Shown here in pieces: positions 2,401 to 28,312 of a DNA stretch of 32,000 nt. The stretch lies in assembly GCF_000011805.1 (NCBI RefSeq), contig NC_006841.2. One strand, 5' to 3'. The DNA comes from Aliivibrio fischeri ES114 (lineage in GTDB: Bacteria > Pseudomonadota > Gammaproteobacteria > Enterobacterales > Vibrionaceae). The notes beneath the pieces are model-generated. The model had not been told where the DNA came from. It did not search any database and saw only the letters and a program-made list of their open reading frames with translations. Positions within the stretch are counted from its first letter, which is position 1. The number at the start of each line of letters is the position of its first letter. The position numbers and the translations under genes are program-made.

Positions 2401-2431
2401 GTCACCTTAAATCCAACAGAATTAAGGTGAC
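2401..2431 (-). terminator. Hairpin downstream of the five-gene operon
   Basis: gtcaccttaa (2401-2410) pairs with ttaaggtgac (2422-2431), 9 nt beyond the stop at 2440. There is no clean U-tract on the minus strand. Confidence 0.4.
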
Positions 2432-2439
2432 TGTTAGTA

Positions 2440-3000
2440 TTATTGATCTGCAACTAGAAGCACACTTAATTGATGCTGAGCGGGGTTATAAGAGATCACT
2501 TCACCATTTGGTGTATCAAATGAATAGATAGCATTACCCGTATTTACAGGCGTGCTACTCCATATGTATCCAGCGAGATCACCGACATCGTAGTTAAAAG
2601 CCGAGCCAAACGCTTTTGTATTCATAGCTGGGCTATTACATGCCGCTTCTTTTAAAGATATTAGTTCTTTTATATTTGGCATTCGCCATTTATCAATACC
2701 TGCAAATTTATGTAATCGGTGATTTCCGTTTTCATCATTGATGGAGGCGATCATCGTCAATGCACTTTGCCAAAAGTAGGTTTGAGTTGCACCACGACAC
2801 TCTTTATTTGTGCTATTCCATTGCTTGCCTAATGGGCATCGCATCCAAGTTAATCCGGTTAGGTTATCAATCACAATACCGCTATCTAGGTTGATATAGC
2901 GGTTGTTAGCTGCTGTTCTCGGTAGGTTAGCATTGCATTCTTGGGCAACAACTGTAATTGAAAAAAATGAAATAAATGCGATAAAAAAGATATTTTTCAT
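2440..3000 (-). CDS. Secreted DUF1566 (Lcl C-terminal domain family) protein
   Basis: Signal peptide MKNIFFIAFISFFSITVVAQ. Family hallmarks DNLTGLTWMRC ... W..A ... DKWRMPNIKELISL. Only a 2-nt gap to the upstream gene. Confidence 0.75.
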   Translation of the reverse strand: MKNIFFIAFISFFSITVVAQECNANLPRTAANNRYINLDSGIVIDNLTGLTWMRCPLGKQWNSTNKECRGATQTYFWQSALTMIASINDENGNHRLHKFAGIDKWRMPNIKELISLKEAACNSPAMNTKAFGSAFNYDVGDLAGYIWSSTPVNTGNAIYSFDTPNGEVISYNPAQHQLSVLLVADQ

Positions 3001-3002
3001 GA

Positions 3003-4505
3003 CTAATTGCCTTGTGCTGAAACTAAACGAGCTGGGAACAAATAAGAAGGATCATTTTCGTATTCGGTATTTTTAAATTTTGGTGGTGTTTTACTGGTGT
3101 AAACTTCCACAGTGCTTACACTGCCTTTATTCTCACCTAATAGGTTAATGGTATTAAAGCTTAAAGCACCATCGTTGTTGTAAGGGGTGTATGTACCGTA
3201 GGTCATTGTTTGATGCCATACTCCACCTTCTTCAATGTCAGAGCTACCTATAGGCTGATTAGGAAAGAAATAATGACTTAATCCGTATGTTGCTGAGCTC
3301 GAGTTTGTTTGACGTTCACCAAAATCGATGAGATTGTAGATTTCATGAAATCTTGGTAGTCGCCAATCACTTTTTCCGCATAATTGAATCGAATTAATGT
3401 AGTTAACGTAATCTTTCGTTGTACAAATCTCATCTCCTGCTGTTTTACAAGTTGCAAGAGCCTCATCTTTAGAGAAAGGCGTGACGTCTGCTAGTTCTAA
3501 AGCAAGTTGGCGATTTTTAAATTGAATAGATGACTCATTGGCTGATTTTATCTCCCAAATTAGCCCACTTCGCTCATCAAGAACGCAGCGCCATCGTGAC
3601 GCTGAGTCACCAAGTTTATTTCCGTTCATGTCTAATTTTGTGAATTTAAATCCATTATTTTGTTTTGGATTTCGTTCGATTTTATCAAAACCAAAATCAG
3701 CATCTTGCCCAGGAAAACTTAAAGGGGATGTTTCGACATTATGTTCACTATTTTCATCGGTAAAATAGAGAACAGTTCCAGTGTCGTTTAATGGACTGCC
3801 GCTTAGTGAAATGGCATTTAATTCTTTGATAAAAGTTAATGATTGGGCTTCTGTTAATACAGATGTCACCATATCTACGGGATTATTAATGATATTTGCA
3901 CTTAACAAAGTTAATAATTGTGTTCTGTTTTGGCTTTTAGTGTGTTTCAACAGGGTAATTACATTTTGCTCTAATATAGCCAGATCTGGATCTTGCAAAT
4001 TATCAAGAAGATTTCCACGTAAAGAAATTCCTTTTTCTGATAGTTGTGTGGTAATTATTTCTATCGCTTTTTTAGCTGTCATTCCATTATTTATGTGACC
4101 AGCGATTAATGACGTGATGCCATTGATTTTATTTCCAGTGGATTTTTGTAATCCTGGAGCCACAATATAGGCATTATTAGTCGATGCCGCTATCGCATTG
4201 TCTGCATATGAGTTTACAGATTGAAAGGCGCTTGGTGTTTCTGCTAATAGTGGTAGCGTTACAATATTTTTATTGGTATCTGTAATTGAAAACTTACCTT
4301 GTGCATCTGCTTTTGACGTCGGTTCATTTGCATCACACATTAAATTTTGGTTGATATCAACGCACACCTTACTATTTGGTGCAATGTGTTGAGTTGCGAT
4401 TGTGCCTGAGAGTGTATAACTCGGAACTGAAGTGTCAGGAGAATCTGAGCCTCCACATCCTGTAAGTGCCAAAGTGGTGGCTAAAAGAGTTAATTGATAT
4501 TTCAT
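3003..4505 (-). CDS. Lipoprotein with C-terminal DUF1566 domain (500 aa)
   Basis: I place the start at ATG 4505, giving MKYQLTLLATTLALTGCGGS with lipobox LTGC. The track's upstream extension to 4724 overlaps the preceding gene. The C-terminus has SGLIWEIK ... SDWRLPRFHEIYNLIDF (DUF1566 pattern). Confidence 0.75.
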   Translation of the reverse strand: MKYQLTLLATTLALTGCGGSDSPDTSVPSYTLSGTIATQHIAPNSKVCVDINQNLMCDANEPTSKADAQGKFSITDTNKNIVTLPLLAETPSAFQSVNSYADNAIAASTNNAYIVAPGLQKSTGNKINGITSLIAGHINNGMTAKKAIEIITTQLSEKGISLRGNLLDNLQDPDLAILEQNVITLLKHTKSQNRTQLLTLLSANIINNPVDMVTSVLTEAQSLTFIKELNAISLSGSPLNDTGTVLYFTDENSEHNVETSPLSFPGQDADFGFDKIERNPKQNNGFKFTKLDMNGNKLGDSASRWRCVLDERSGLIWEIKSANESSIQFKNRQLALELADVTPFSKDEALATCKTAGDEICTTKDYVNYINSIQLCGKSDWRLPRFHEIYNLIDFGERQTNSSSATYGLSHYFFPNQPIGSSDIEEGGVWHQTMTYGTYTPYNNDGALSFNTINLLGENKGSVSTVEVYTSKTPPKFKNTEYENDPSYLFPARLVSAQGN

Positions 4506-4533
4506 AGATAGATCTTCTTGTTGTGAGTTAAAA

Positions 4534-6813
4534 TTACAAAAGTAGGTATTGGCGACGTAGCCAAAAGATAAAAAGTAAAAATAAAGTGAATAACGAAATA
4601 CTACCGCCCGAGGTGGATGAACTCGCCGTTGTCGATGCTGTTTGAGACGAGCACTGATAAGAACGAATGTGTCCAACGCCCCATGACAGTAATTTTCCTG
4701 AATGATTAGGACTGAAATCGACAACCTCTAATCGCCATGTACCCCAACTCGATTCCCCTAAGAGTGGAGCAAGGATGTCATCGTGTTGAACGGTAAAATA
4801 GTCACGAAATGTTTTATTTTTTATTTGACGGTGATTGAGTAAATTGACTTTTGTTCCACGGGGTGAAATAAGAGAAATATTTAAATCAATGAAATTATCG
4901 TGTTCAATATTGAGATAAATACCAAAAGTATTATCCACGACACCGTCTCTATTTTTAGCAATAAAATTAATGGTTTGTATACCAGCGATAGGGCGACCAG
5001 AATTATCTGTTGTTGCATCAGGGAGACGAATGTTTAGAGGTTTAAACGGGTTAGAAAAAAGAGGTATCCCTTTTACTAGAGTCGTATTCTCAGACCATTC
5101 TTGCGATAATAAATTCGAGCTAAATTGATATTTAATATTGGTTTCTATATTAAATGACTCTCCACACACCAATCCAGTAGGGTAATCAATATTCATTTCC
5201 ATTTCTTTGAATGGAATGCTGACAATATGTTCAGCTAATTTATTATTAATGAATATGTCACCATCAATAGAAGCTGAGCGTTGCGTTGGTGATAGTATCC
5301 ATTGGATTAAACTGTTAGGAGCAATATAGCGGTGAGCGAATTCTTGCTTGAATGGTTCGAGTATAAGTCCATGCTGATTAAAATGTTTCGTTAAGATCTG
5401 TGCATAGATTTTGTTTGGATAAAGCTGATTAGCCACATACACCATGCTTTCTGCTAAATCGTGCATTTTTAAACCACGACCTAACCCATACATAGACTCT
5501 AAAACAATCGTGTCGAACTCAGTAAATGCATTTTCGCCATAAGTGCTAACACTTTGCTTTAAGGATTGAAATAAAGGGGTAGACCAAAGCTCATCTCCAA
5601 GTTCACCTGCGACGCTTTCGTGCGCACGATATTCAGAACTTTTAAAATAACGGGCTCTTTGGTTCCATAAACTACGAGTGGTATTTTTTGTGCCAAAATA
5701 ACCATCCCAGTTAAAAACAGTATCGATTTCAAATTCTTGACCAGAGCTATTCGCATCCGTGAATTGTTGTCTATAACTGTAACTTCCTGCCCAATAATCG
5801 CCAAAGCCTTCACCTATTGCGCCTGTGTGTCCATAAGCCCAATCAGGAACGATATGATAATGAATAGAATGGCCTAATTCATGTAAAAGAACATCAGCGT
5901 CAAGTGCATCTGGAGAACCACCACCTACGCCAAGCAGCAAGGCTTTAGGGCCGTAATAATAAGTTGAATTATCTGCGATTAATCCTCGAGCATCAAAATC
6001 AATAGGTGCGTTGAAAACAGAAAACCCGAGAGATTGAATGTATTTTGCAGACGCATTTAGATGCGCAAATGCCATCACCTGCGGAAAACGTTGATCATTG
6101 ATTCTTATAGATTTTAATTCTGCTAGAGATGAAAATTTCGCCACGCCTTCTTGAGGAAGAAAACCATTACTATCTTCTGTTCTGGTTGGGTTACTTGATG
6201 TTTTTGGTGTGATTAAACTAATCGCATCAATTTGACGTACTCTTGAATTACTTAAGAAATATTGTCCATTTGCTAATAACACTTCAGCGTTTTTTTTAAC
6301 GTATTGAGGTGGGTTAGGATATTGAGCCAAATCTGTCATTTGTGACGTAGGTTTTGGTGCTCGATCCATTGTTCGTAAATCAGGATCAAAGACCATGAGA
6401 TCTGCAGTGATTACGTTGCCACTGGCTACTGTTGGTGATGTCAGAGAGTTTAACGTTCGTGGTGCTTCAAGCTCTGAGGCCGTTGTTGGTTTACCATTAC
6501 GGATAATAGTATCTTGAAGGCTTTTAAAGACTCTAACAATATGGTTATTTTTATTTGTAGATAGAACAATCGTTTTTTGTTGTTGATATTCACCATCCAC
6601 CCATAGATCAAAGTTATAATGAGCACCAAGTTTAGAGTGCGTCACATAACGCAATTTATATTCACCATGGTTAGGGTAAGTCTGCTGTAAGTAGTTTTTG
6701 GCATCTTGAGCTTGAGATATGGTTATTAATTGATCTGGATAATCCCACTCACCAGCAAGGGTTTGAGTGGAAAACCATAATCCAAACATGAAGTAATAAA
6801 GGTACTTAATCAT
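4534..6813 (-). CDS. Secreted thermolysin-like zinc metalloprotease with proprotein-convertase P-domain and GlyGly-CTERM sorting signal
   Basis: Signal peptide. HELGH at aa 311-315 (nt 5869-5883), with GAIGEGFGD placing Glu335 20 residues after the second His, as in the thermolysin GAINEAISD motif. P-domain-like segment ...LNISLISPRGTKVNLL...WGTWRLEVVD...GKLLSW. C-terminus SSSTSGGSISLFTLFLLFIFWLRRQ. Confidence 0.8.
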   Translation of the reverse strand: MIKYLYYFMFGLWFSTQTLAGEWDYPDQLITISQAQDAKNYLQQTYPNHGEYKLRYVTHSKLGAHYNFDLWVDGEYQQQKTIVLSTNKNNHIVRVFKSLQDTIIRNGKPTTASELEAPRTLNSLTSPTVASGNVITADLMVFDPDLRTMDRAPKPTSQMTDLAQYPNPPQYVKKNAEVLLANGQYFLSNSRVRQIDAISLITPKTSSNPTRTEDSNGFLPQEGVAKFSSLAELKSIRINDQRFPQVMAFAHLNASAKYIQSLGFSVFNAPIDFDARGLIADNSTYYYGPKALLLGVGGGSPDALDADVLLHELGHSIHYHIVPDWAYGHTGAIGEGFGDYWAGSYSYRQQFTDANSSGQEFEIDTVFNWDGYFGTKNTTRSLWNQRARYFKSSEYRAHESVAGELGDELWSTPLFQSLKQSVSTYGENAFTEFDTIVLESMYGLGRGLKMHDLAESMVYVANQLYPNKIYAQILTKHFNQHGLILEPFKQEFAHRYIAPNSLIQWILSPTQRSASIDGDIFINNKLAEHIVSIPFKEMEMNIDYPTGLVCGESFNIETNIKYQFSSNLLSQEWSENTTLVKGIPLFSNPFKPLNIRLPDATTDNSGRPIAGIQTINFIAKNRDGVVDNTFGIYLNIEHDNFIDLNISLISPRGTKVNLLNHRQIKNKTFRDYFTVQHDDILAPLLGESSWGTWRLEVVDFSPNHSGKLLSWGVGHIRSYQCSSQTASTTASSSTSGGSISLFTLFLLFIFWLRRQYLLL

Positions 6814-6822
6814 TTTTATCTC

Positions 6823-8958
6823 TTAAAATACGTATTTAGCGTTTACAGTGAAATAACGTCCAGGTTCAGTGGAATAGCCTTTCGCTGAGTCCATAATTCC
6901 TGCAACATCTTGATAGCGGATGTATTCTTTATCGAATAGATTGATGATGTTTGCGCTGATATTAAAATCTGTGGTGACAGCGTAATTTACGCCAAGATCA
7001 ACCGTTGCCCAGCTTGATGTTGTCGCACATTCTGTTGCCATACCGATATTCGTTGCGCATTGTGGTACTCGATCCATTGAGGATGCCCAATTAAGAGAGC
7101 TGTAGGCTGACAGTTTTTCAAGATCGTAAGTAATACCAACATTTCCTTCTAATGGAGTGATGGTGCGAATGTATTCACCATCGCCATCTTTTCCGTCAAC
7201 ATAACCAATCTTTGAGTTTATTCCCCATTCTTGGGTGAATTGGTGTGCTAGGGTTAATTCAGCTCCATAAGTCTCGACACCACTGATGTTTTGGTATTGC
7301 TTTAAGTAATTCCCGGTAGATGGGTCCATTCCAACTTGTATAACATCGATAAAGTTTTCAAATTTTTGATAAAAAACAGCACCATAGATTTGAGTTTTAC
7401 CAGAATCATATTTAATACCGTGTTCGATAGAATCACTTGTCTCTGCTTCTAAATCCATATTAGGAATGATTAAGAATGGGGTCAGAGGAACAAAGTCATG
7501 GTTGTTATATCCGTATGCTTTATCATAAGCTGGAGCACGATAACCGTGGTTATAGGATAAATACGCGTTGAGTGTATCTGTAAATTGATAGGTCGCAGAA
7601 ACACTAGGAGATAGCTCACTGCTATTTATTTTTTTTACACTAAAACCAGCAATAGAGTCAGAATCGCTAGGGGTTAAGCTGTGCGCATCAAAACGAAGCC
7701 CTCCAGTGATAATCCAATTGTTAACTTCCACCATATCGCGCAAATAAATGCCAAGACTATATGCTCTTGCTGGTGCGAACGGTTGTGTGTGATTTACATT
7801 ATTACCGTTCCAATCAATAGTTGATTTGCTGTTTGGTCTCTCATATTGATTGCTTGTTAAACTTAGACCATAAGCAAGATTATGAACTTGGTTTAATAGA
7901 GTAGCAGAACTTATAAAATCGTTATCAAAACCAATTAATTGATCAGTAAAACTTTGAGCTTTTATTTCTCGGCGTTTTTCTACAATATTATTTCGCTCAC
8001 GCGACATTAATCTATTGATGTCTGAAGATGTTGTGGTATCTCTCCAGTAGAGTTTTGAATTTAATTTCTCAAAGAAAGCATCGTAAGGTGTATATTCAGC
8101 GCCAATATAAGCGTTGATATCTTGAGTATTTTCTTTGTGGTTATAGGTAGATATATGCCAGATACCATCTTTTTGAATAGATGCGGATCCTTCTTCACGT
8201 AACATATCTTCGGTGTAGTATTCAATTTTAGCGGTTAGCATTAGCTCTTCGCCAATGTAGTGATTTACTGTATATGCAGCGTTTACACCATCAACATTAC
8301 GGTTATATAGATCTTGTTGGTAGTTACGGGTTTCTTCACCTTGCCAGTAGGATAAATTAATTAGACTTTCAGTATTTCCAGAGCGAAACGCTAGGTTACT
8401 GCTACCTTTATATTTATTACTTATGCCTGTGTAAGTACCAGAAACATCAGAATAGAAATCGTTACCTTTTAAATAGTCTTCAGGTTGTTTCGTTTCAATA
8501 ATAACAACACCACCAATAGCGCCTGAACCATGAACTGAAGAGCTGGCACCTTTTACAACTTCAATTGATTTTACGTTTGATAGATCAAACGAATTACGGC
8601 CAACTTTGTCATTAATATCTGAAGCGCCGTAACCATCGGAAGATTTAATTCCGTCTTTTACAATAACAATACGATTCCCTGTCATTCCTCGAATTGTTAT
8701 ATTTTGCGGGCGACCAGCGCCACCAGTAACACTGACTCCTGCTTCTTTATTGAGAGAGTCGTATAATTCTGTTGTTCCTTTTGTTTCTAGGTCATCGCCA
8801 TTGATAACAGTAATAGACCCTGCAACTTTTGATAAGGGTTGTTCTACTTTGTTAGCTGTAACGACAACTTCATCAAATTGTGTAACCTCAGAATTAGCGT
8901 GTACGAAGTTGGCAGTCAGTACGCTAAGTACTGCCGCTGTTATTGGTGAAAGCTTCAT
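6823..8958 (-). CDS. TonB-dependent outer-membrane receptor
   Basis: Signal peptide, TonB box DEVVVTA, plug motifs ITIRGM / IVKDG / IEVVKGASSSVHGSGAIGGVV, and a beta-barrel ending in ...YFTVNAKYVF. GGAG RBS upstream. Confidence 0.9.
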   Translation of the reverse strand: MKLSPITAAVLSVLTANFVHANSEVTQFDEVVVTANKVEQPLSKVAGSITVINGDDLETKGTTELYDSLNKEAGVSVTGGAGRPQNITIRGMTGNRIVIVKDGIKSSDGYGASDINDKVGRNSFDLSNVKSIEVVKGASSSVHGSGAIGGVVIIETKQPEDYLKGNDFYSDVSGTYTGISNKYKGSSNLAFRSGNTESLINLSYWQGEETRNYQQDLYNRNVDGVNAAYTVNHYIGEELMLTAKIEYYTEDMLREEGSASIQKDGIWHISTYNHKENTQDINAYIGAEYTPYDAFFEKLNSKLYWRDTTTSSDINRLMSRERNNIVEKRREIKAQSFTDQLIGFDNDFISSATLLNQVHNLAYGLSLTSNQYERPNSKSTIDWNGNNVNHTQPFAPARAYSLGIYLRDMVEVNNWIITGGLRFDAHSLTPSDSDSIAGFSVKKINSSELSPSVSATYQFTDTLNAYLSYNHGYRAPAYDKAYGYNNHDFVPLTPFLIIPNMDLEAETSDSIEHGIKYDSGKTQIYGAVFYQKFENFIDVIQVGMDPSTGNYLKQYQNISGVETYGAELTLAHQFTQEWGINSKIGYVDGKDGDGEYIRTITPLEGNVGITYDLEKLSAYSSLNWASSMDRVPQCATNIGMATECATTSSWATVDLGVNYAVTTDFNISANIINLFDKEYIRYQDVAGIMDSAKGYSTEPGRYFTVNAKYVF

Positions 8959-8974
8959 TTGTAGCTCCGCTTTT

Positions 8975-10978
8975 TTAATTATTTATTAGAGATAAAAGAA
9001 AAATATATTCAAACGCTTGTTGTTTTAAAGCATCCCGTCTATTTGTTGAGTGTCCTTGATTAAAATGGGTTTCAAGTAAATAAGGACCTTTACCTGAACT
9101 GTTTCTTCTTATTTTGGTTAGGTATTTAGCGCCTTCCCAATAAGGCACTCGACTATCATTAAAACCAACTTGAACAAGAAGTGGGGGGTACTCTTGTTTA
9201 GAGATATTTAAATAAGGATCCGTTTTCTTCATGATATTTAATTCATCTTGAATTGTTGGATTTCCCCATTCACTATATTGTTGTAGTGTCAGTGGTAAAG
9301 AGCTATCAGACATACTATTAATGACATCGACAAAAGGTACATTGAGAGCTGCGCCTTGAAATAACTTTGGCTCTTGATTCAGTGCAGTTGCAATTAGAGT
9401 ACCGCCTGCACTTGACCCCAATGCGTAGATTTTTCGTTCCCCATTGCGATATAACTTCATCGATTTTGCTGCATTTATAAAATCAGTTGCGGCATTTTGA
9501 CGGTTTATCCCTCGACCTGCTTGATACCAATCTTCACCTTTGTAACCACCACCTCGAACATGAGCAATGGCATAAATTACTCCACGATCTAATAAGCTGA
9601 TTATTTGTGGCATGAAATAGGGTTTCATCGTGACGCCGTAAGCACCGTAACCGTATAAAAAAACAGGATTGGTATCGGTTAGCTTATCTTTCCTATAAGC
9701 AAGAGTTACCGGTAGTTCAATTCCATTATTTGTTACGATTATCTGTTCTGTTGCATACAAAGAAGCATCAATATTTGGATATTGATCTTCTAAGTACAGC
9801 GCTCTATTTAAGGTCGCAGTATTTACTTTTTCCCATTTTGGGCTTTGCACCATAGACATACTACGTAAGTAAAAGGTATCACTATTAAAATCACCAACAC
9901 GACTGATCCAAGCAACTTGGCCAGAGGTGGATAAAGAGGTTCTTAGTCTGATTTCTCCAGCAGTATTTAGATAAATTAACTGCGAGCTTTTATTATCGTT
10001 AACAGAAACAACGGGACCTGATTTAAATAAATAAAAGTCTGTAATTCTTTTGTTTTTCTGTGGTCGATAAAGTGGTAACCAATTGTTTATAATTGATATA
10101 TGTGCAATGTTTGCTGAATATAATATAAACAGGTTGTGTTCATGATTGCTATTTATTATGGCTTTGTTTTTAGCAATATCTGCGTAATATTCAACACCTT
10201 CTTGTCGAGTCTTTATTGGTAAAGAGAGATGTGTACTTGTTAAGTTTAAAATTCTTTGTTCAGTGCTATTGCTGTTATTAGATTGTACCATCGCATATTG
10301 ATGATCACTTGAAAGATAAAAAGACAGTAGCCATTCTTTATCTTTTTCAGTGAAAAGAGACGTTATGTTTTGTTGCTGTGTATCAAACTGAATTAATTCA
10401 AAAGGTCGTAATGAATATTTTTCTTGTTTGATAAGGTACACATAACGGTCATCTTTAGACCAAGTAACAGTAGGCTCAACGTGATGTGTTAACGTTGTTA
10501 TCGATTGTGTTCTTAAATCAACAATACTGGCTTGGTATTGTTCAGTTCCTGTCAAATCTTCGGTAATGACGAGTTTATTATGATCATTACTTAAATCCCA
10601 GCCACCAAGGTGATAGTAATCGAATTGATTCGCTCGGTTAGAGATATTGAATAATACAGTGATCTTTTTTGTTTTTAATGAACGCGAAAGTATTTGGCGC
10701 AGACCATTATATTGAGTCACTGTGTATTCTGAATCACCAATTATTTTCCACGGAGACTCCGATTTTATTGGTTGGTTATGTTGCCACTCTTCGACCAATG
10801 CATCCGTTTTAGGCTTAACTTTTGTTTTGAATTCATAAGTTAATTTATTTTCATTATTTAAATACTTTAAAACCTCAGGATTAGATCGTGAACTATCTTT
10901 TAGCCAATTCAAATTATCTTGAGCGAAAGTTAAAGAAGAAAATAGAACTAAGCAGTAAAGAACATTAAGAAATTTCAT
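8975..10978 (-). CDS. Exported S9A prolyl-oligopeptidase-family serine peptidase (oligopeptidase B / protease II-like)
   Basis: PtrB-like N-terminus DNLNWLKDSSRSNPEVLKYLNNENKLT. Catalytic triad context GSSAGG, NDSRVPYWEG, QGHS. I prefer ATG 10978, which gives the signal peptide MKFLNVLYCLVLFSSLTFAQ. The track starts at GTG 11014. Confidence 0.85.
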   Translation of the reverse strand: MKFLNVLYCLVLFSSLTFAQDNLNWLKDSSRSNPEVLKYLNNENKLTYEFKTKVKPKTDALVEEWQHNQPIKSESPWKIIGDSEYTVTQYNGLRQILSRSLKTKKITVLFNISNRANQFDYYHLGGWDLSNDHNKLVITEDLTGTEQYQASIVDLRTQSITTLTHHVEPTVTWSKDDRYVYLIKQEKYSLRPFELIQFDTQQQNITSLFTEKDKEWLLSFYLSSDHQYAMVQSNNSNSTEQRILNLTSTHLSLPIKTRQEGVEYYADIAKNKAIINSNHEHNLFILYSANIAHISIINNWLPLYRPQKNKRITDFYLFKSGPVVSVNDNKSSQLIYLNTAGEIRLRTSLSTSGQVAWISRVGDFNSDTFYLRSMSMVQSPKWEKVNTATLNRALYLEDQYPNIDASLYATEQIIVTNNGIELPVTLAYRKDKLTDTNPVFLYGYGAYGVTMKPYFMPQIISLLDRGVIYAIAHVRGGGYKGEDWYQAGRGINRQNAATDFINAAKSMKLYRNGERKIYALGSSAGGTLIATALNQEPKLFQGAALNVPFVDVINSMSDSSLPLTLQQYSEWGNPTIQDELNIMKKTDPYLNISKQEYPPLLVQVGFNDSRVPYWEGAKYLTKIRRNSSGKGPYLLETHFNQGHSTNRRDALKQQAFEYIFLLSLINN

Positions 10979-11040
10979 AAGTACAGCAAATCCATGAGTC
11001 AATTTAATTAACACGGCGAATGCTACACATTAATACGAAT

Positions 11041-11059
11041 GAGATCAATTATCATTTTC
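11041..11059. promoter_or_regulatory. Candidate Fur box upstream of the peptidase/TonB-receptor operon
   Basis: gagatcaattatcattttc matches the 19-bp consensus GATAATGATAATCATTATC at 13/19 positions by hand alignment. On the other strand it contains AATGATAAT. It lies 27-63 nt upstream of the possible starts. Confidence 0.35.
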
Positions 11060-11182
11060 ATTTCTTTTTATTGTTATTGTGATGACCATCTTGTTATTAG
11101 CGTGGGAATTGACGTTGTTTTACACTTGATTTGTAGATTTTTAATGATTTTTGGACTAAGGCTTAACTTCAAGAGGAGGGAA

Positions 11183-11210
11183 GCATACAGTTATGACTTA
11201 AACTGTATGC
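11183..11210 (-). terminator. Hairpin downstream of ohrR
   Basis: gcatacagtt (11183-11192) pairs with aactgtatgc (11201-11210), 8 nt past the stop at 11218. On the minus strand it is followed by a pyrimidine-rich tract (ttccctcctctt). Confidence 0.4.
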
Positions 11211-11217
11211 ATTAATA

Positions 11218-12753: not shown

Positions 12754-15141
<2,388 letters not shown>

Positions 15142-15262: not shown

Positions 15263-16270
<1,008 letters not shown>

Positions 16271-16550
16271 TCACTGTAGTAGAATTCATTTTTATAGGTA
16301 AATATTGGGAAACAACGCTTCTGTAATTGTGTTTGTAGCGATGACCAATAAGAGAAAGAATATCGATGAGAAGGTTGAAATAGTAGGTTATAAAGGGAAA
16401 AGTGTGAGTATGTTAAGACGATTTTTACTTATATTTACCTAAATTTTTACTTATGAAGAAATCACATGATTTGATTTTTAGAATCGCTATGATTACCGTT
16501 TTAGTAATGAAAATTAAGCGTTGATATGTATCTGTATAGATTGATTGAAT

Positions 16551-16582
16551 AAAAAAGGCACTGAATATTATCAGTGCCTTTT
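16551..16582 (-). terminator. Rho-independent terminator of the distal ygjI-like permease gene
   Basis: aaggcactga (16555-16564) pairs with tcagtgcctt (16571-16580). On the minus strand the hairpin is followed by TTTTTT. Confidence 0.75.
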
Positions 16583-16621
16583 GTCATATCTAGGGGAAAC
16601 TAAATGCTAATTTGTTTCGTG

Positions 16622-18140
<1,519 letters not shown>

Positions 18141-18968
18141 TGTGAGATGTGTCATTAAATAATGAAGAAAAAATAAGCAAAGTGTGATGATGATCTATTC
18201 TAATGTGATGAAACGATAGTTAGGTTAGTGGTTATTCTTAAATAAGGTATCGTTAAAAAGATGAATGTTCGTAATGACATTGTGGTGGTAGTACGAAGGT
18301 CTTTCTTTTTATTCTATTGATTGTCACGGTCACTTTAGAACAAATACTCACCACTTAGTCTGAAGATGTGTTGTGCCGTTGATCGTTAATTATTTAGATA
18401 AACGAGATTAATCTAAATAATTCAAACTTATTTTGGGTATAAATAAGTAAATATTTCAATAAGTGTAAAGATATGAAATTATTTATGTTTGGTGGTAAAT
18501 TATTTAGAGCAAACAAAATAAAAATATTGACCTTGTTGTAATTGCAGAATATAAGGTAGGGAAATTTTAAGTGCCTCATATAAGGGTTAAGTTATTAATT
18601 TTATAATTTATTTTTTTTAGCATGTCTTTTTTACATACTAGATAGCAATGATTAAAAATTTGAATGGAACGATATCGATGTATTAAAATTTCTAATGAAG
18701 TGAGTTTTATAGACAAGTTTCATGCTTTAAAGATATACAGAAGAATTCGTAGCTTTAAGTTATATGACATGAATTTATTTTTATCGACTGCATCAGAGAT
18801 AAAATCATTTTTATTTAATACAGAGACAACAGAAGGTTAAACTGATAGAGCTGTTTTGAGTTTTTATTTTATTGGTTTCATTAAAAATAGTAATGGTTTG
18901 GTCATCAAAAGGTGATTCATTTATTTTCATAAGTGATTTATCTGTACTTGTAGTATGTAAATTAAAAA

Positions 18969-20300
18969 ATGTTTAATGTTAAATTATTTGGATTAGATAA
19001 GCTTTTCTTATTTGTGGTTTTGTTTTTGTGCATTTTTGCATCGATAATTTATTATCATATATATTCCATATCAATTTTAGAGAAAAGTATTCACATTAAT
19101 TACCAAAAGGTTGTTGACGTAACAAAGCGGTTTCATGGCTATTACATAAATTCGGATACGATATCTTTAAAAAAAGGCGTTCATGATAATGATGGCGTAG
19201 GCGTTATTGTTAATAAACTAGGGGACGTTAAAGTATTATCTCCAGCTATAAATCAGCTTTATAAGAGCTTATCTGGAGTGATAGAATCAAAATATATATG
19301 GACTGTTGCTGTTATAGATAAGTTGCATAATGAAAATACAGAGAACTCATACTTTAAGCCTTTAAGAGATGGTTATCTTAGATTTAACAATAAGTCATTG
19401 CATGATTCAAATATATTAGAAAGCATAGTTAATTTAGAAAGCTTGAAAGTTAGTTATAAATCTTTCCATCATGATGATGTGAGAATTACTGAGATATATA
19501 AAGAGCAATGGACAGGTGAAAAAATATACTCAGTTATTTATCCTATTTATTTAGATACAAGGTTAACTTCGGTTATTATTGTAGATATTAAAAGAGGCTG
19601 GAATTCTCTTTTAATTGAAAAGTTTAATCAGAAACGTTGGACTCATTTTTATTATGGAAAAGGTGTTAATTGGGCAACATTTACTCTTGCATTGCCATAT
19701 ACATCGGATAAATATTCACCAGATGTAAGTATTGATCTTCTTTCAATATTGATAGGTAGCTTTTATATATCTTGTGTTGTCTTCTTTGCCGCATTATGTG
19801 GTTATTATTTTTATGTAAAAGTAACCATAATGAGAAGCTACGATCATATGACGGGGTTTTATCGTCGTGATTTTTATGAACCAAAATTGAAAGCATTAGA
19901 ATCAGCTTCTTTTTTAATGATAGATATCGACCATTTTAAGCGAGTAAATGATACTTATGGGCATGACTTTGGTGATGTTGTTATTCAAGAAGTAGCGCAT
20001 CGTATACAAAACTGCATTAGAGTAAATGATATTGCTATTCGCTGGGGTGGCGAAGAGTTCATTGTTATCTTTCAAAAAATAAATCAAGATGACCTTATGA
20101 ATAAGGCGGAATCCATTAGAGAAGTAATAGAAAGCAAATCAATTGATGGAATAGAAATTACGATATCTATTGGTGGAGCCACCCAAAGAGACTTTGAAGC
20201 CGTTAGTGATGCAATAAAGAGAGCTGATATTGCGCTTTATTATTCTAAAAATGCAGGCCGTAACATAGTTACATTAGATAAGAACAATTATGATTTTTAG
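18969..20300 (+). CDS. Membrane diguanylate cyclase: TM - periplasmic Cache-like sensor - TM - GGDEF (GGEEF, I-site RVND)
   Basis: GGDEF domain motifs DHMTGFYRRDFY, MIDIDHFKRVNDTYGHDFGD, RVNDIAIRWGGEEF and YYSKNAGRN. Hydrophobic helices at about aa 12-32 and 257-283 flank a periplasmic region of about 225 aa. Confidence 0.85.
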   Translation: MFNVKLFGLDKLFLFVVLFLCIFASIIYYHIYSISILEKSIHINYQKVVDVTKRFHGYYINSDTISLKKGVHDNDGVGVIVNKLGDVKVLSPAINQLYKSLSGVIESKYIWTVAVIDKLHNENTENSYFKPLRDGYLRFNNKSLHDSNILESIVNLESLKVSYKSFHHDDVRITEIYKEQWTGEKIYSVIYPIYLDTRLTSVIIVDIKRGWNSLLIEKFNQKRWTHFYYGKGVNWATFTLALPYTSDKYSPDVSIDLLSILIGSFYISCVVFFAALCGYYFYVKVTIMRSYDHMTGFYRRDFYEPKLKALESASFLMIDIDHFKRVNDTYGHDFGDVVIQEVAHRIQNCIRVNDIAIRWGGEEFIVIFQKINQDDLMNKAESIREVIESKSIDGIEITISIGGATQRDFEAVSDAIKRADIALYYSKNAGRNIVTLDKNNYDF

Positions 20301-21618
20301 CAATGTTGATAATAATAATATGTATGTAAAGTTTTTCTTATGCTCATTTATACTGTCAGGATATATATTGTATCAATATAACAGGTTAGAAATAGAATCG
20401 TTTAAAATGGAGTTTCAAAGTAATATAAATAGGCTTTATGATACAATTAGGAAAATAACACCATATTATTTAAATACTAATACAGTAGAGCTATATAAAG
20501 GAACGTATACTATTGATGAAGTTTCTGTGATGGTAAATGAAAATAGTAAGGTAAAGGAGTTATCTTTAGGTATAAATTTATTAGAAACAGAGATAAGGAA
20601 GTATATCGGTGATGACTATTGGAGTATTGCAATTATACAAAAGTCAGACACAAATACAGATTCAAATACCGCACATTTTAAGCCGTTACGTGACATCCAT
20701 GTTAATTTAAATTCAGATATGAAATATGATAGAAACTGGATAGATAGAATATTAATCAACGAAAAAATATCAAGTAACTATCATGTTTTATCATTATGCG
20801 ATTTGAAGTTAACAGAACCATATGTTGAGAAAATCTCAGAGCAAAAAGTTAGGAGCATATTTTACCCTATATATGTTAATAAAAATCTAACCGCAATGTT
20901 TTTATTGGATATTAAAGATTCCGTATTTGATAGTTGGTTGAATGAATTTAACACAGATAGATTTAGTTTTTTATATTATATCAATAATGAAAATCCATTT
21001 TTTTCTTTAGATGATTCAATAGATATTCCTTGTTCTCCAATTGAAAACATATTGGGATTATCAATAAATATAAACAAAATAATGATATGGAGCTTGTTAT
21101 TTGCGTTTGTTATTACAGGCGGGTTCATTTTTATTGAAAAAACACTACGAAAGTTTATTTTTTATTGCACTCTCGATGATATGACTGGCCTTTATCGTCG
21201 TGATTTCTATGAAATGAAGCTTAATCATTTATTAGATAAATCCATTATCATTGTTGATATTGATAAATTTAAAAGCATCAATGATAAATATGGTCACTCT
21301 AAAGGTGATGAAGTCATAACTGAGGTATGCCGTCGCTTAAGGCAATGCATTAGAGGTGATGATTTAGCCATTCGTTGGGGCGGTGAAGAGTTTGTTATTG
21401 TTTTAAGTAATGTTTCTAGTATTGATTTATTTAATCGTTCTGAAGCAATAAGGGTATCAGTGTCAGAAAGCCCAATTGCTGGTATGAATGTTTCTGTATC
21501 TATAGGGGCGGCAATAGGGAAGAAATCTTCTTTTAAACGTACGCTAAAAATGGCGGATACTGCATTGTATCAATCAAAAAATGCAGGAAGAAACAAAGTA
21601 ACGGTATTTGAAGGATAA
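20290..21618 (+). CDS. Membrane diguanylate cyclase, paralogue of the preceding gene (GGEEF, I-site RGDD)
   Basis: DDMTGLYRRDFY, IVDIDKFKSINDKYGHSKGD, RGDDLAIRWGGEEF, YQSKNAGRN. Same TM-sensor-TM architecture. ATG 20290 overlaps the upstream stop (ATGATTTTTAG); an alternative ATG lies at 20320. Confidence 0.85.
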   Translation: MIFSNVDNNNMYVKFFLCSFILSGYILYQYNRLEIESFKMEFQSNINRLYDTIRKITPYYLNTNTVELYKGTYTIDEVSVMVNENSKVKELSLGINLLETEIRKYIGDDYWSIAIIQKSDTNTDSNTAHFKPLRDIHVNLNSDMKYDRNWIDRILINEKISSNYHVLSLCDLKLTEPYVEKISEQKVRSIFYPIYVNKNLTAMFLLDIKDSVFDSWLNEFNTDRFSFLYYINNENPFFSLDDSIDIPCSPIENILGLSININKIMIWSLLFAFVITGGFIFIEKTLRKFIFYCTLDDMTGLYRRDFYEMKLNHLLDKSIIIVDIDKFKSINDKYGHSKGDEVITEVCRRLRQCIRGDDLAIRWGGEEFVIVLSNVSSIDLFNRSEAIRVSVSESPIAGMNVSVSIGAAIGKKSSFKRTLKMADTALYQSKNAGRNKVTVFEG

Positions 21619-21623
21619 TATAT

Positions 21624-23054
21624 ATGAAATTTATTACTAATAAATATATTGTTTATTTGTTGATCTTTGTAGTTTTTGTACAATTTTTTGTCGTTAAAGA
21701 TTATGAGAACTTTGTTGATAATAATGTTAGAAGTACAATCGAGAGTATTGAATATAAACTTGATTCAGCCAAAGAAACAGTCGGTGAGTTACAAAAGTTT
21801 AAAGAGAAAAATTGTGAAGAAATGATGTTACCTTTACAGAAGATTGTTGCTTTAAACCCAATGATAAATAGCATTTCATTTGTTCGCGATGGTGCTTACT
21901 ATTGTAGCTCTATTGCTGGTAAAAAGGTGTCTTCTGCGGTATTACCTAAAAGAGAGATTCATATACATGAAAAGAATTACTTAACTGGAATGCCAAGTTT
22001 TTCTTATTATCATCAGTATAATGACGATCATGGGGTTCAATTTTACATGAAGGGGATCTCTGTCGATTTGGGCGATAGCCCTGTTGGCCATCTATCTTTA
22101 TCAAATAAAGAATACGTGATATCGAAAAACAATGTATTTAGTGTGTATGTGCCAAATGAAAAGCAGACACATAAATCAGAAAAGTACGATTTTGTAATTT
22201 TACTGGACTATAATGCTGAACTATCAATAAAAAATTATCTTATTAGTCATGTACTTACGATTGTTATCGTCTTACTGCTAATCATGCTTATTAAAGTATT
22301 ATCATTTAAGCTTTCGTTATTAGATATTGAATTGATAAGGTTAAAAAAAGCAATTAAAAACAATAAGATAGTTCCTTTCATACAACCTATTGTTGATGCT
22401 AATGAAAATATCATTGGAGGGGAGGTATTAGCTCGATGGATTACCTCTTCAGGTGAGGTTATTCCGCCGTTGTCTTTTATTCCTAAAATAGAAAAGTTTG
22501 GTTTAATTAATGCAATGACGAAATCCTTATTAAATCAGCTTAAAGTGTATGTAAATGAGCATCAGGTTCATGGATTAAAAGTAAGCGTAAATTTTACTGA
22601 AAGCTGTCTTTATGATGAAGAAATGTACGAATTGTGTAAAGAGTTATCGGGACACTTTATATTGATTTTAGAATTTACAGAATCTATGGAATTTGCAGAT
22701 AAAAATAAGATAATTTCGTACATGGAAAAGTTTAGAAAAATTGGCGTTCAATTTTCCCTTGATGATTATGGAACAGGCTATTCATCATTGAAATATTTAA
22801 ACTACTACCAGTTTGATGTTATCAAAATTGATAAATCATTTATTGATGATATAGAAACGAATCAGCACTCTATCAAAATTATCGAGAACATTATCTTATT
22901 AGCCAACAATTTAGATATTCAATTAGTTGCGGAAGGTGTTGAGAACCATCGACAAAAGAAAATTCTTAATGATTTGAATATTTCAGCACAGCAAGGATTT
23001 TACTATTTCAAACCAATGCCTTTGGATAATTTTCATTCCATAATGCGTGATTAA
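21624..23054 (+). CDS. Membrane c-di-GMP phosphodiesterase: CSS-motif periplasmic domain + EAL domain
   Basis: TM1, then a periplasmic domain with Cys64 and the YYCSS motif (Cys94), then TM2. EAL-domain residues are all present: GGEVLARW, VSVNFT, ILEFTES, DDYGTGYSSLKYL, KIDKSFI, VAEGVEN, QQGFYYFKP. GAAGGA RBS, 5 nt after the upstream stop. Confidence 0.85.
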   Translation: MKFITNKYIVYLLIFVVFVQFFVVKDYENFVDNNVRSTIESIEYKLDSAKETVGELQKFKEKNCEEMMLPLQKIVALNPMINSISFVRDGAYYCSSIAGKKVSSAVLPKREIHIHEKNYLTGMPSFSYYHQYNDDHGVQFYMKGISVDLGDSPVGHLSLSNKEYVISKNNVFSVYVPNEKQTHKSEKYDFVILLDYNAELSIKNYLISHVLTIVIVLLLIMLIKVLSFKLSLLDIELIRLKKAIKNNKIVPFIQPIVDANENIIGGEVLARWITSSGEVIPPLSFIPKIEKFGLINAMTKSLLNQLKVYVNEHQVHGLKVSVNFTESCLYDEEMYELCKELSGHFILILEFTESMEFADKNKIISYMEKFRKIGVQFSLDDYGTGYSSLKYLNYYQFDVIKIDKSFIDDIETNQHSIKIIENIILLANNLDIQLVAEGVENHRQKKILNDLNISAQQGFYYFKPMPLDNFHSIMRD

Positions 23055-23076
23055 AACAAAAGGCGCATAAATGAAA

Positions 23077-23107
23077 AAAGATCCGAGAATATTATTCACG
23101 GATCTTT
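23077..23107 (-). terminator. Rho-independent terminator of permease copy 1 (may also stop the convergent EAL gene)
   Basis: aaagatccg (23077-23085) pairs with cggatcttt (23099-23107). On the minus strand the hairpin is followed by TTTTTTCATTT. Confidence 0.7.
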
Positions 23108-23124
23108 AGGTGCTAAGGTATTAA

Positions 23125-24669
<1,545 letters not shown>

Positions 24670-24728
24670 GGCTCTGAATGTAGTTTCAGATACCGTTTTA
24701 TTATTGTTTTATTACGGTGTTGCTTAGT

Positions 24729-28312
<3,584 letters not shown>

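Follow-up and report, generated by a model that had tools for sequence, protein, structure and literature searches.

Gene organization of the locus

The window analysed here is a stretch of 32,000 nucleotides from Aliivibrio fischeri ES114 (contig NC_006841.2). It carries an AT-rich block of three plus-strand genes between two minus-strand permease genes, perm1 and perm2 (Table 1). Published ES114 cloning primers were identical to the window at the three gene ends tested, without any sequence difference, and this block (hereafter the trio) is therefore the VF_A0342-VF_A0343-VF_A0344 c-di-GMP operon of Aliivibrio (Vibrio) fischeri chromosome II. The arrangement given in the original prediction, two GGDEF genes overlapping by 11 nt and a 5-nt gap before the EAL gene, was exact. 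Such co-directional, operon-like packing recurred in four other species, and the 3 weak terminator-like sites counted within the trio coding sequence did not exceed the number expected from shuffling (1.6 +/- 1.4). The genes were named a 'three-gene operon' in 2014 (Ondrey & Visick, PMC4235076), and an IPTG-inducible promoter (Tn5P) reading toward them led to IPTG-repressible motility, an effect that, according to the authors, could also run via VF_A0341 (PMC4235076). From the gene spacing and this Tn5P result (PMC4235076), we infer that the trio is transcribed as an operon.

The surrounding minus-strand ygjK, ygjJ, ebgC, ebgA and ebgR-like genes were confirmed to follow the E. coli order. perm1, which by inference from the published numbering (PMC4235076) is VF_A0340, is the first gene of perm1-ygjJ-ygjK and a paralogue of E. 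coli YgjI, while perm2 is the last gene of ebgA-ebgC-perm2. The two had been called duplicated permeases: they are indeed paralogues, but not a recent duplication, being 56% identical and both of widely conserved types. Orthologues of perm1 were 86–93% identical in Photobacterium, Aeromonas and Vibrio.

Table 1. Features of the permease gap and its borders (window coordinates)
Position	Strand	Feature	Basis
16622..18046	-	perm1, APC-family permease	Pfam AA_permease_2, 118 bits
18047..18212		perm1 upstream region, ancestral, common to other Aliivibrio	cross-species homology to ~18197-18212
18213..18968	+	AT-rich trio leader, A. fischeri-specific, GC 0.262	homology break, composition
18527..18555	+	candidate sigma-70 promoter TTGACC-17 nt-TATAAG, facing the trio	read from sequence
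18969..20300	+	VF_A0342 (GG1), membrane diguanylate cyclase, 443 aa	primer exact at 18969, Pfam, motifs, TM
20290..21618	+	VF_A0343 (GG2), membrane diguanylate cyclase, 442 aa	primer exact at 20290, Pfam, motifs
21624..23054	+	VF_A0344, predicted CSS-domain EAL phosphodiesterase, 476 aa	reverse primer exact at 23025-23054, Pfam, motifs
23062..23072		junction of 2995-bp indel	other strains/species: 966-969-aa HD-GYP gene and its terminator
23077..23107	-	perm2 intrinsic terminator hairpin, then T-run on minus strand	inverted repeat and sequence
23125..24555	-	perm2, orthologue of E. coli YgjI (~80% identical)	Pfam, orthologue comparison

About 0.9 kb of non-coding DNA had been noted ahead of the trio, and the interval 18047-18968 indeed measures 922 bp, with a GC content of 0.259. 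Homology with other Aliivibrio breaks at ~18197-18212 on the left and at 23127 on the right, so that the boundaries first proposed for the insert were within ~70 bp on the left and essentially exact (within 3 bp) on the right. The perm1 side of this interval contains a perfect 15-nt inverted repeat (18097-18111 / 18126-18140), which is unchanged in every A. fischeri locus and in two further Aliivibrio species. In the trio leader proper (18213..18968), neither a conserved ORF nor an Rfam family nor any remnant of a gene was detected; a 58-aa ORF (18664-18840, plus strand) and a 61-aa ORF (18394-18579, minus strand) were broken by indels in other A. fischeri strains. No similarity was observed between this leader and the short upstream regions of the trios of other species. 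The block of the candidate promoter was kept in 6/6 aligned A. fischeri leaders, including a divergent one. Lacking the final T of its -10 hexamer, it was passed over by a consensus scan.

Two membrane cyclases and a CSS-EAL protein

The domains assigned earlier from the sequence alone were all recovered by Pfam profiles above curated cut-offs. GGDEF (PF00990) scored 126.7 and 121.6 bits for the two cyclases (cut-off 23.8), and VF_A0344 gave 188.6 bits for EAL and 44.4 bits for the CSS-motif domain (cut-off 23). VF_A0342 and VF_A0343 share 36% identity over their full length. The sequences RVNDIAIRWGGEEF at residue 351 and RGDDLAIRWGGEEF at residue 355 carry an intact GG[D/E]EF with an RxxD 5 residues upstream; these read, as predicted, RVND-5-GGEEF in VF_A0342 and RGDD-5-GGEEF in VF_A0343. 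Overexpression of VF_A0342 lowered motility and raised a c-di-GMP reporter (PMC11575326). The reporter was raised likewise by each of the 28/28 predicted DGCs of V. fischeri (Isenberg et al. 2024, PMC11575326), and Delta(VF_A0342-A0343) is a component of the low-c-di-GMP Delta7DGC strain (Isenberg et al. 2022, PMC9426504).

VF_A0342 consists of a TM segment, a dCache-like periplasmic domain, a second TM segment and the GGDEF domain. We compared an AF2 model of the sensor (pLDDT 83.8, pTM 0.83) with the PDB by Foldseek. The best 23 matches were all dCache-type ligand-binding domains (E 2.4e-5 to 6e-4, TM 0.40–0.60), CqsR being the top one (E 2.4e-5, TM 0.53/0.60). The predicted fold of residues 30-262 resembles V. 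cholerae CqsR, B. subtilis KinD, C. jejuni Tlp3 and P. aeruginosa PctC (Foldseek E 2e-5 to 1e-3, probability ~1.0) and, like dCache domains, has two alpha/beta modules after a long N-terminal helix. Sequence identity to these four is 8–13%, and none of the Cache-type Pfam models (dCache_1, dCache_2 and related ones) matched the sensor at E <= 1. The periplasmic sensors thus likely have a dCache-like fold, as judged from moderate TM-scores (0.4–0.6) without a sequence-profile match. The output also differs: the GGDEF domain is attached directly after TM2, where the dCache comparators have a kinase or MCP module.

As adjacent paralogous membrane GGDEF proteins with a periplasmic sensor, VF_A0342 and VF_A0343 also recall E. 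coli dgcI(yeaI)-dgcJ(yeaJ), which we take to be tandem GAPES1 cyclase genes. The GAPES1 match of VF_A0342 is faint, and membership is not established, since the score (18.2 bits) lies below the Pfam threshold (27.7) and covers 38 residues only. The E. coli pair, unlike the trio, presumably has no co-transcribed EAL gene.

VF_A0344 shows a TM1-periplasmic-TM2-EAL architecture (hydrophobic segments 6-24 and 210-228; EAL 240-464). Its EAL signature reads EVL. The catalytic residues, said earlier to be kept, align with those of the solved PA3825 EAL domain (GGEVLARW, VNFTE, EFTES, DDYGTGYSS, KIDKSF, AEGVE and QG). Overexpression of VF_A0344 nevertheless raised the c-di-GMP reporter instead of lowering it and did not increase motility, so no PDE-consistent phenotype was obtained (PMC11575326). 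With TM1, a two-cysteine periplasmic CSS domain, TM2 and an EAL domain with intact catalytic motifs, the protein resembles the E. coli CSS-domain PDEs PdeC and PdeB, for which redox control is established (Herbst et al. 2018, PMC5897775); the PdeC type is marked by DsbA/DsbB-dependent inhibition and by DegP/DegQ processing. The cysteines of VF_A0344 (C64 and C94, the latter within C94-S-S) are 30 residues apart and were invariant in five Aliivibrio orthologues; both were lost in the P. leiognathi homologue. The Pfam CSS model covers residues 38-100 only (profile 12-75 of 209). VF_A0344 differs further in being encoded in an operon behind two cyclases, an arrangement that, to our knowledge, has not been reported for E. 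coli CSS-PDE genes.

Base composition of the trio

The low G+C of the block had been proposed from three spot counts (13, 10 and 23), which were exact, and the dip persisted on full computation: GC was 0.292 for 18047-23124 vs 0.381 elsewhere in the window. None of the sixteen 1-kb windows within the segment exceeded 0.321, the lowest value among the 101 windows outside it (mean GC 0.379, sd 0.022), which places the segment at z = -3.8. An analysis of codon usage had been suggested as a check: GC3 of the trio (0.23–0.28) falls within the range of the other genes of the window (0.21–0.46), and synonymous usage is not foreign. The deficit sits at codon positions 1 and 2 (GC1 and GC2), with FYMINK amino acids in excess. 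With GC3 in the neighbours' range, it comes from amino-acid composition.

The trio at another site in sister species

The original prediction described the trio as inserted antisense between the permeases of a conserved ebg-ygj locus, and this held: perm1 and perm2 are adjacent without insert in Photobacterium, Aeromonas, Vibrio and Klebsiella/Kluyvera. Far from being universal at this position, the trio was missing at the ebg-ygj site of each of 3 other Aliivibrio species and of all ~70 other genomes. Sister Aliivibrio (A. sifiae, a genome of the A. finisterrensis type and one further Aliivibrio) carry a gene-for-gene orthologous trio adjoining lux, flanked by a CNNM/CorC gene on one side and an ABC transporter gene on the other; this CNNM-ABC site is empty in A. 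fischeri, with 51 bp between the genes. Identities between A. fischeri and sister trios were 54–58% for GG1-GG1 and 54–59% for GG2-GG2 vs 35–36% for cross-pairs. Trio GC was 0.30–0.32 across all species, AT-rich at either site, and identity between species was 54–70% for the trio vs 74–97% for flanking genes. P. leiognathi carries a GGDEF-GGDEF-EAL run at a third locus.

The trio is thus most likely native to Aliivibrio, intrinsically AT-rich and fast-evolving. Its position would differ by intragenomic transposition, or by loss followed by regain via intra-genus recombination. On the assumption that A. fischeri is the sister lineage of all other Aliivibrio, a move in either direction would take a single event. 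We consider it quite probable that the trio is a self-contained, genus-wide c-di-GMP input module (two dCache-like cyclases and a CSS-EAL protein), native, located at the ebg-ygj gap here and at CNNM-ABC in sister species, with the HD-GYP gene lost.

The history could also have been one of allelic replacement within the genus, the native CNNM-ABC copy being lost and a divergent Aliivibrio copy captured in the permease gap through recombination that was illegitimate or assisted by homology. The trio is only 54–60% identical to its sister-species orthologues and its leader is unlike upstream regions in other species, as such a capture would leave them. The variation within A. fischeri points the same way: GG1 and GG2 form deeply diverged alleles (dS 0.39–0.64) beside adjacent perm1 with dS 0.012–0.015, and recombination therefore imports divergent DNA at the permease gap. 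Among non-fischeri species, however, the trio diverges as fast at one fixed locus (54–70%), so high divergence does not require transfer, and the donor was not found. We regard this history as rather unlikely.

An origin outside the genus, as a recent genomic island from a low-GC donor that landed between the permease paralogues, is largely refuted and appears very improbable. The GC dip would fit it, as would the absence of the trio from the ebg-ygj site in other Aliivibrio, Photobacterium, Aeromonas, Vibrio and enterobacteria, and the 86–96% identity of trio proteins within A. fischeri vs ~99% for flanking genes. Yet the trios of sister Aliivibrio have their genes in identical order and are comparably poor in GC, and the codon positions trace the deficit to amino-acid composition. 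Full-length homologues of trio proteins were found in Vibrionaceae only, and the best matches outside A. fischeri were all Aliivibrio (53–58%), everything else being at or below 41%. Around the trio, no integrase, transposase, flanking direct repeat or tRNA target was found. The 'foreign cassette' suggested originally is accordingly not sustained, since the trio is native to the genus and occupies a different chromosomal site in relatives.

Could the position instead couple the trio to the ebg-ygj genes, so that surface behaviour follows a sugar or glycopeptide signal that EbgAC/YgjK handle and that the trio detects in the periplasm? Only physical position suggests this, and a metabolite ligand would be plausible given the predicted dCache-type, small-molecule-binding fold. 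Against it, the sister-species module adjoins lux/CNNM/ABC genes and not ebg, the trio lies on the opposite strand with its own 0.9-kb leader, no LacI/EbgR-type regulatory link was seen, and the conserved palindrome is part of the ancestral DNA upstream of perm1 and not of the trio side. The proposed coupling to beta-galactoside or collagen-glycopeptide use is therefore not supported and highly unlikely, the position of the trio not being conserved.

The trio might also consist of decaying or silenced passengers without current function: it is an AT-rich island whose long, AT-rich leader is of the kind typical of H-NS-silenced DNA, motility responded only when an external promoter was supplied (PMC4235076), and VF_A0344 gave no PDE-consistent phenotype (PMC11575326). 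This is scarcely credible, because dN/dS of 0.065–0.098 (14 sequences) places the trio under purifying selection, every catalytic motif is preserved, the three reading frames are uninterrupted in 20/20 A. fischeri strains' loci, and VF_A0342 and VF_A0343 raise c-di-GMP when overexpressed (PMC11575326).

A proposed model for the module

For the trio as a native, self-contained input module, we propose the following working scheme. The three genes would be co-transcribed from their own promoter inside the long AT-rich leader, possibly the candidate at 18527-18555. Periplasmic small-molecule ligands may act on both dCache-like sensors and so switch on c-di-GMP synthesis by the GGDEF domains, which would be capped by product inhibition at the RxxD I-site. 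The CSS-EAL enzyme would be inactive with its two periplasmic cysteines disulfide-bonded and, once reduced, would degrade c-di-GMP. The net output of the transcribed trio would be more c-di-GMP and less flagellar motility.

The trio itself was already known: it was catalogued, then tested by overexpression and deletion after 2014. The literature that we found on the operon does not discuss that its site differs from that in sister species, nor does it treat the HD-GYP indel, the intrinsic AT-richness or the dCache-like sensor fold. Our additions are modest details: the HD-GYP indel, the deeply diverged GG1/GG2 alleles and the probable dCache-like periplasmic sensors.

HD-GYP indel and strain variation at the permease gap

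An HD-GYP phosphodiesterase gene occupies the permease gap in other Aliivibrio and in 4/20 A. fischeri loci. One A. fischeri locus was 99.2–99.4% identical to the window on both sides of the junction and was longer by 2995 bp; a 6-mer, ATAAAT (23067-23072), is common to the breakpoints. The ES114-type sequence of the window has lost the HD-GYP gene by a clean 3-kb deletion.

More speculatively, and with considerable doubt, the trio may be a relocatable cassette that moves between Aliivibrio sites without recognisable mobility machinery, the permease gap serving as a recurrent landing pad for c-di-GMP genes (HD-GYP, then the opposite-oriented trio). If this were true, the presence or absence of HD-GYP and the GG1/GG2 alleles would partly account for how squid-symbiont strains differ in motility, biofilm or colonisation behaviour.

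Identity and gene content of the locus

Published ES114 cloning primers for VF_A0342, VF_A0343 and VF_A0344, with sequences taken from PMC11575326, matched the window with zero mismatches at 18969, 20290 and 23025-23054. The three plus-strand genes (GG1, GG2 and EAL, hereafter the trio) are therefore a known, named chromosome II locus, VF_A0342/VF_A0343/VF_A0344, and identical proteins of this locus were found in more than 100 assemblies. The ORF map reproduced the predicted layout, including the overlap and the gap between the trio genes (see table). All trio domains exceeded the curated Pfam thresholds, both cyclases carry RxxD-5-GGEEF, and alignment of the VF_A0344 EAL domain with the solved PA3825 EAL domain showed a match at each motif. 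Thus the domains, the five-residue I-site spacing and the retained catalytic residues of the original prediction all hold, as does its statement that no effector is encoded. Elsewhere in the window, the minus-strand ORFs 3003-4724 and 4534-6813 share 191 nt; since 4534-6813, the upstream ORF, extends 191 nt into 3003-4724, the TTG start of the latter probably lies upstream of its true start.

Features of the window, and the additional gene of related loci (L-numbers are individual loci from A. fischeri strains and relatives)
Feature	Position	Strand	Basis or remark
ygjK	12754-15132	minus	ORF map
ygjJ	15263-16258	minus	ORF map
Permease 1 (perm1)	16622-18046	minus	ORF map
Leader part 1	~166 bp next to perm1		ancestral perm1 upstream sequence
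Leader part 2	~18437-18600		conserved, 6/6 strains aligned
Leader part 3	18600-18780		variable; deleted in L020
Leader part 4	proximal 190 bp		conserved
GGDEF gene VF_A0342 (GG1)	18969-20300	plus	ORF map, Pfam, ES114 primer match
GGDEF gene VF_A0343 (GG2)	20290-21618	plus	11-nt overlap with VF_A0342; Pfam, ES114 primer match
CSS-EAL gene VF_A0344 (EAL)	21624-23054	plus	5-nt gap after VF_A0343; Pfam, ES114 primer match
Permease 2 (perm2)	23125-24555	minus	ORF map
ebgC, ebgA, LacI-family ebgR	beyond perm2	minus	ORF map
HD-GYP gene, 966-969 aa	L017 1979-4973; L020 2299-5199; L023 6830-9739		window junction 23062-23072

The trio is already known and experimentally studied, and no new system is added here. 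An IPTG-inducible promoter on a transposon, upstream of and facing the trio, renders motility IPTG-repressible (PMC4235076), and Delta(VF_A0342-A0343) is one lesion of the low-c-di-GMP Delta7DGC strain (PMC9426504). On systematic overexpression, the c-di-GMP reporter was raised by 28 of 28 predicted cyclases; VF_A0342 lowered motility and left cellulose unchanged. Against expectation, VF_A0344 and four other predicted phosphodiesterases also raised it, VF_A0344 with no gain in motility (PMC11575326). The papers retrieved were not found to discuss the relocation of the trio, the polymorphic HD-GYP indel or the dCache-like sensor folds, all described below; these are modest additions.

The trio is an insertion native to the genus

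When the window proteins were mapped onto 78 related loci, both permease types were found to adjoin without the insert, at a distance of 0.25-0.65 kb, in Photobacterium, Aeromonas, Vibrio and Klebsiella/Kluyvera, and E. coli carried the perm2 type (ygjI) only. No GGDEF or EAL gene was mapped at the permease site in any of these genomes, E. coli included. Nucleotide homology to three other Aliivibrio species ended at ~18197-18212 and at 23127, essentially the interval first proposed (18141-23124). The trio is an insertion into the ebg-ygj locus. The bracketing permeases, described at first as duplicated, are indeed paralogues; at 56% identity they are an old pair and not a recent duplication.

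Such an insert could be a foreign cassette, as the original prediction had considered. Beyond A. fischeri, the closest homologues of VF_A0342 were all from Aliivibrio (53-58% identical), with those of Photobacterium, Vibrio and Enterovibrio at 41% or less and only GGDEF domain matches outside Vibrionaceae. In the three sister genomes inspected (A. sifiae, an A. finisterrensis-type genome and a third Aliivibrio; 3/3), the VF_A0342 homologue leads the same GGDEF-GGDEF-CSS-EAL trio, with likewise overlapping gene junctions, flanked by a CNNM/CorC gene on one side and an ABC-transporter pair on the other (the CNNM-ABC site); the A. sifiae trio site is immediately downstream of luxCDABEG. Orthology runs gene for gene: GG1-GG1 and GG2-GG2 identities are 54-58% and 54-59%, against 35-36% for cross-pairs. 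The CNNM-ABC site of A. fischeri is empty, its CNNM and ABC genes lying 51 bp apart; the anchor protein of this site is also encoded on a 1,379,633-bp contig, and the contig bearing the trio at the ebg site is likewise of 1,379,633 bp. Where one of the two sites holds the trio, the other thus lacks it, a pattern indicative of relocation within the genus. The island showed no integrase, transposase, flanking repeat or tRNA; direct or inverted repeats sought at its flanks were only short AT-rich chance matches. Taken together, the sister orthologues, the empty reciprocal site, the all-Aliivibrio nearest homologues and the lack of mobility signs argue strongly against a foreign cassette: the trio is a module that belongs to the genus, evolves fast, is AT-rich in its own right and has another site in A. 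fischeri than in its sister species.

At a third locus, P. leiognathi carries GGDEF, GGDEF and EAL genes in a row, and the architecture is therefore old in Vibrionaceae. The EAL protein of this GGDEF-GGDEF-EAL(-GGDEF) cluster (L102 8637-10121) has lost both cysteines of the CSS domain; redox control of any kind would thus be missing there. P0039 (A. fischeri according to NCBI) and the homologue from V. scophthalmi are each encoded by a lone GGDEF gene, uninformative on the trio.

AT-richness, divergence and selection

The three G+C spot counts of the original prediction were exact on recount, and the low G+C held on full computation: segment 18047-23124 has a GC of 0.292 against a window background of ~0.38, and 16 of its 16 1-kb windows were at or below the minimum of 101 windows outside (mean 0.379, sd 0.022; z = -3.8). 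The trio has a GC of 0.30-0.32 in every species, at either site, versus 0.35-0.40 for flanking genes. Codon usage, proposed as a check for foreign origin, spoke against it: trio GC3 (0.23-0.28) falls within the range of the other 19 ORFs of the window (0.21-0.46), and the deficit lies in GC1 (0.34-0.39) and GC2 (0.23-0.30), at or below the bottom of the range of these ORFs. Phe, Tyr, Met, Ile, Asn and Lys make up 0.38-0.41 of the trio proteins versus 0.29-0.35, and interspecies identity is 54-70% for the trio versus 74-97% for neighbours in every comparison. This pattern is unlike foreign codon usage; we infer that loosely constrained sensor proteins drifted under the AT mutation bias of the genome.

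Within A. fischeri, Nei-Gojobori estimates over 14 sequences gave dN/dS of 0.098, 0.091 and 0.065 for VF_A0342, VF_A0343 and VF_A0344 respectively; flanking genes with non-zero dN gave 0.014-0.075, and ebgR showed zero non-synonymous changes. The trio is clearly under purifying selection. Mean dS of the trio was about twice that of the flanks, in a mosaic pattern: between the window (18969-21618) and loci L013/L015, dS reached 0.39-0.64 in GG1 and GG2, with 0.012-0.015 in the adjacent perm1 and 0.09-0.12 in EAL. Deeply diverged cyclase alleles therefore circulate within A. fischeri, and the abrupt change in dS implies recombination breakpoints inside the island.

An HD-GYP gene and other strain variation

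The permease gap of three other Aliivibrio species holds a 969-aa gene in the same orientation as the permeases. Its product has a membrane sensor at the N-terminus, a weak match to GAF and an HD_5 domain; as the HD and HHExxDGxGYP motifs are intact, the gene encodes an HD-GYP phosphodiesterase. Of 20 A. fischeri loci, four (L013, L015, L017 and L020) have it besides the trio. L017 and the window are 99.2-99.4% identical on both sides of 2995 bp extra in L017, the indel breakpoints have ATAAAT in common (window 23067-23072), and the segment missing from the ES114-type sequence contains the gene's own hairpin terminator. The ES114-type arrangement would most simply be a recent clean deletion of the HD-GYP gene. 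The reference strain ES114 is reported to encode two HD-GYP proteins (PMC11575326); since it is without the permease-gap gene, some other strains have one more, and the inventory of 50 c-di-GMP genes is therefore strain-specific.

A second strain-variable region, 2410-11217 (8.8 kb), is swapped for ~20 bp in L009, L017 and L019; its five minus-strand genes encode proteins of 186 aa and 573 aa, a 759-aa P_proprotein-domain protein, a 711-aa TonB-dependent receptor and a 679-aa S9 peptidase. The OsmC gene is absent from L010 and L016, perm2 is broken into 129 + 366 aa in L003 (14157-15588) and ygjJ into 138 + 96 aa in L007 (6295-7289), all cases of strain-level gene decay around the locus. Additional DNA of ~2.4 kb lies between perm1 and ygjJ in Aliivibrio sp. 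1S175 (L021 11413-13882), and of ~2.7 kb after perm1 in A. sifiae (L024 11416-14139), where ygjJ had no match.

The leader

Alignment of six A. fischeri strains divided the 922-bp leader between perm1 and VF_A0342 into four parts (see table). A perfect 15-nt inverted repeat, GTAACTTTTAGTAAA-N14-TTTACTAAAAGTTAC, lies at 18097-18140 in part 1, 50-95 nt ahead of the perm1 start codon. It is unchanged in every A. fischeri locus as well as in Aliivibrio sp. 1S175 and EL58, and may serve perm1-ygjJ-ygjK as an operator or RNA hairpin. TTGACC-17-TATAAG, oriented toward the trio, occurs at 18527-18555 within the conserved block, and scans for sigma-70 and terminator consensus showed no enrichment over shuffles (promoters, 24 versus 34 expected). 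No known riboswitch or sRNA was found in the leader, an Rfam scan of 16000-25000 (E <= 1) giving one chance snoRNA-like match only. Two ORFs sometimes annotated here by gene callers, 18664-18840 (plus) and 18394-18579 (minus), carry indels in other strains and are not genes. As tblastn with the 240 collected proteins, the window's own proteins and the HD-GYP protein revealed no gene remnant (best E 0.037), a 24-nt likeness of 18485-18508 to the GG1 start was dismissed as chance. Trio upstream regions of other species are short (120-270 bp), with no similarity to this leader; blastn-short queries with the leader and with the sequence that follows EAL gave nothing significant against their trio flanks. 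Downstream of EAL, the L017 and L098 terminators show a loose likeness, too weak for use.

Sensors and a proposed mode of action

Coupling to beta-galactoside or glycopeptide metabolism, as first suggested, is unsupported: the position is not conserved, and the trio is on the opposite strand with its own leader. Both cyclases consist of TM, a ~225-residue periplasmic domain, TM and GGDEF, and VF_A0344 of TM, CSS domain, TM and EAL. The VF_A0342 periplasmic domain, modelled from a 66-sequence alignment (pLDDT 83.8, pTM 0.83), had as best structural matches the dCache ligand-binding domains of V. cholerae CqsR, KinD, Tlp3, PctC and Mlp24 (E 2e-5 to 1e-3, TM 0.4-0.6); Cache sequence profiles gave no match to it. 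The CSS cysteines C64 and C94 of VF_A0344 are invariant in five of five Aliivibrio orthologues. In E. coli PdeC/PdeB, a DsbA-dependent disulfide of these cysteines inhibits the enzyme, which is active in its thiol form (PMC5897775).

VF_A0342 and VF_A0343 would be gated by periplasmic small molecules, with the I-site presumably capping the output of both, and by analogy VF_A0344 would be off in an oxidising periplasm and on once reduced. In aerobic culture, transcription of the trio would therefore raise net c-di-GMP and lower motility, an output in line with the transposon-promoter (Tn5P) result and with the overexpression data. Oxidised, inactive VF_A0344 may likewise explain, on the E. coli precedent, its missing phosphodiesterase phenotype on overexpression.

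The trio belongs to the catalogued set of 50 c-di-GMP proteins of a major symbiosis model, and dCache-like sensors and conserved CSS cysteines provide concrete, testable input hypotheses for three otherwise uncharacterised enzymes. The low GC here is that of a fast-evolving, AT-biased sensor module, which calls for caution in taking composition alone as proof of horizontal transfer.
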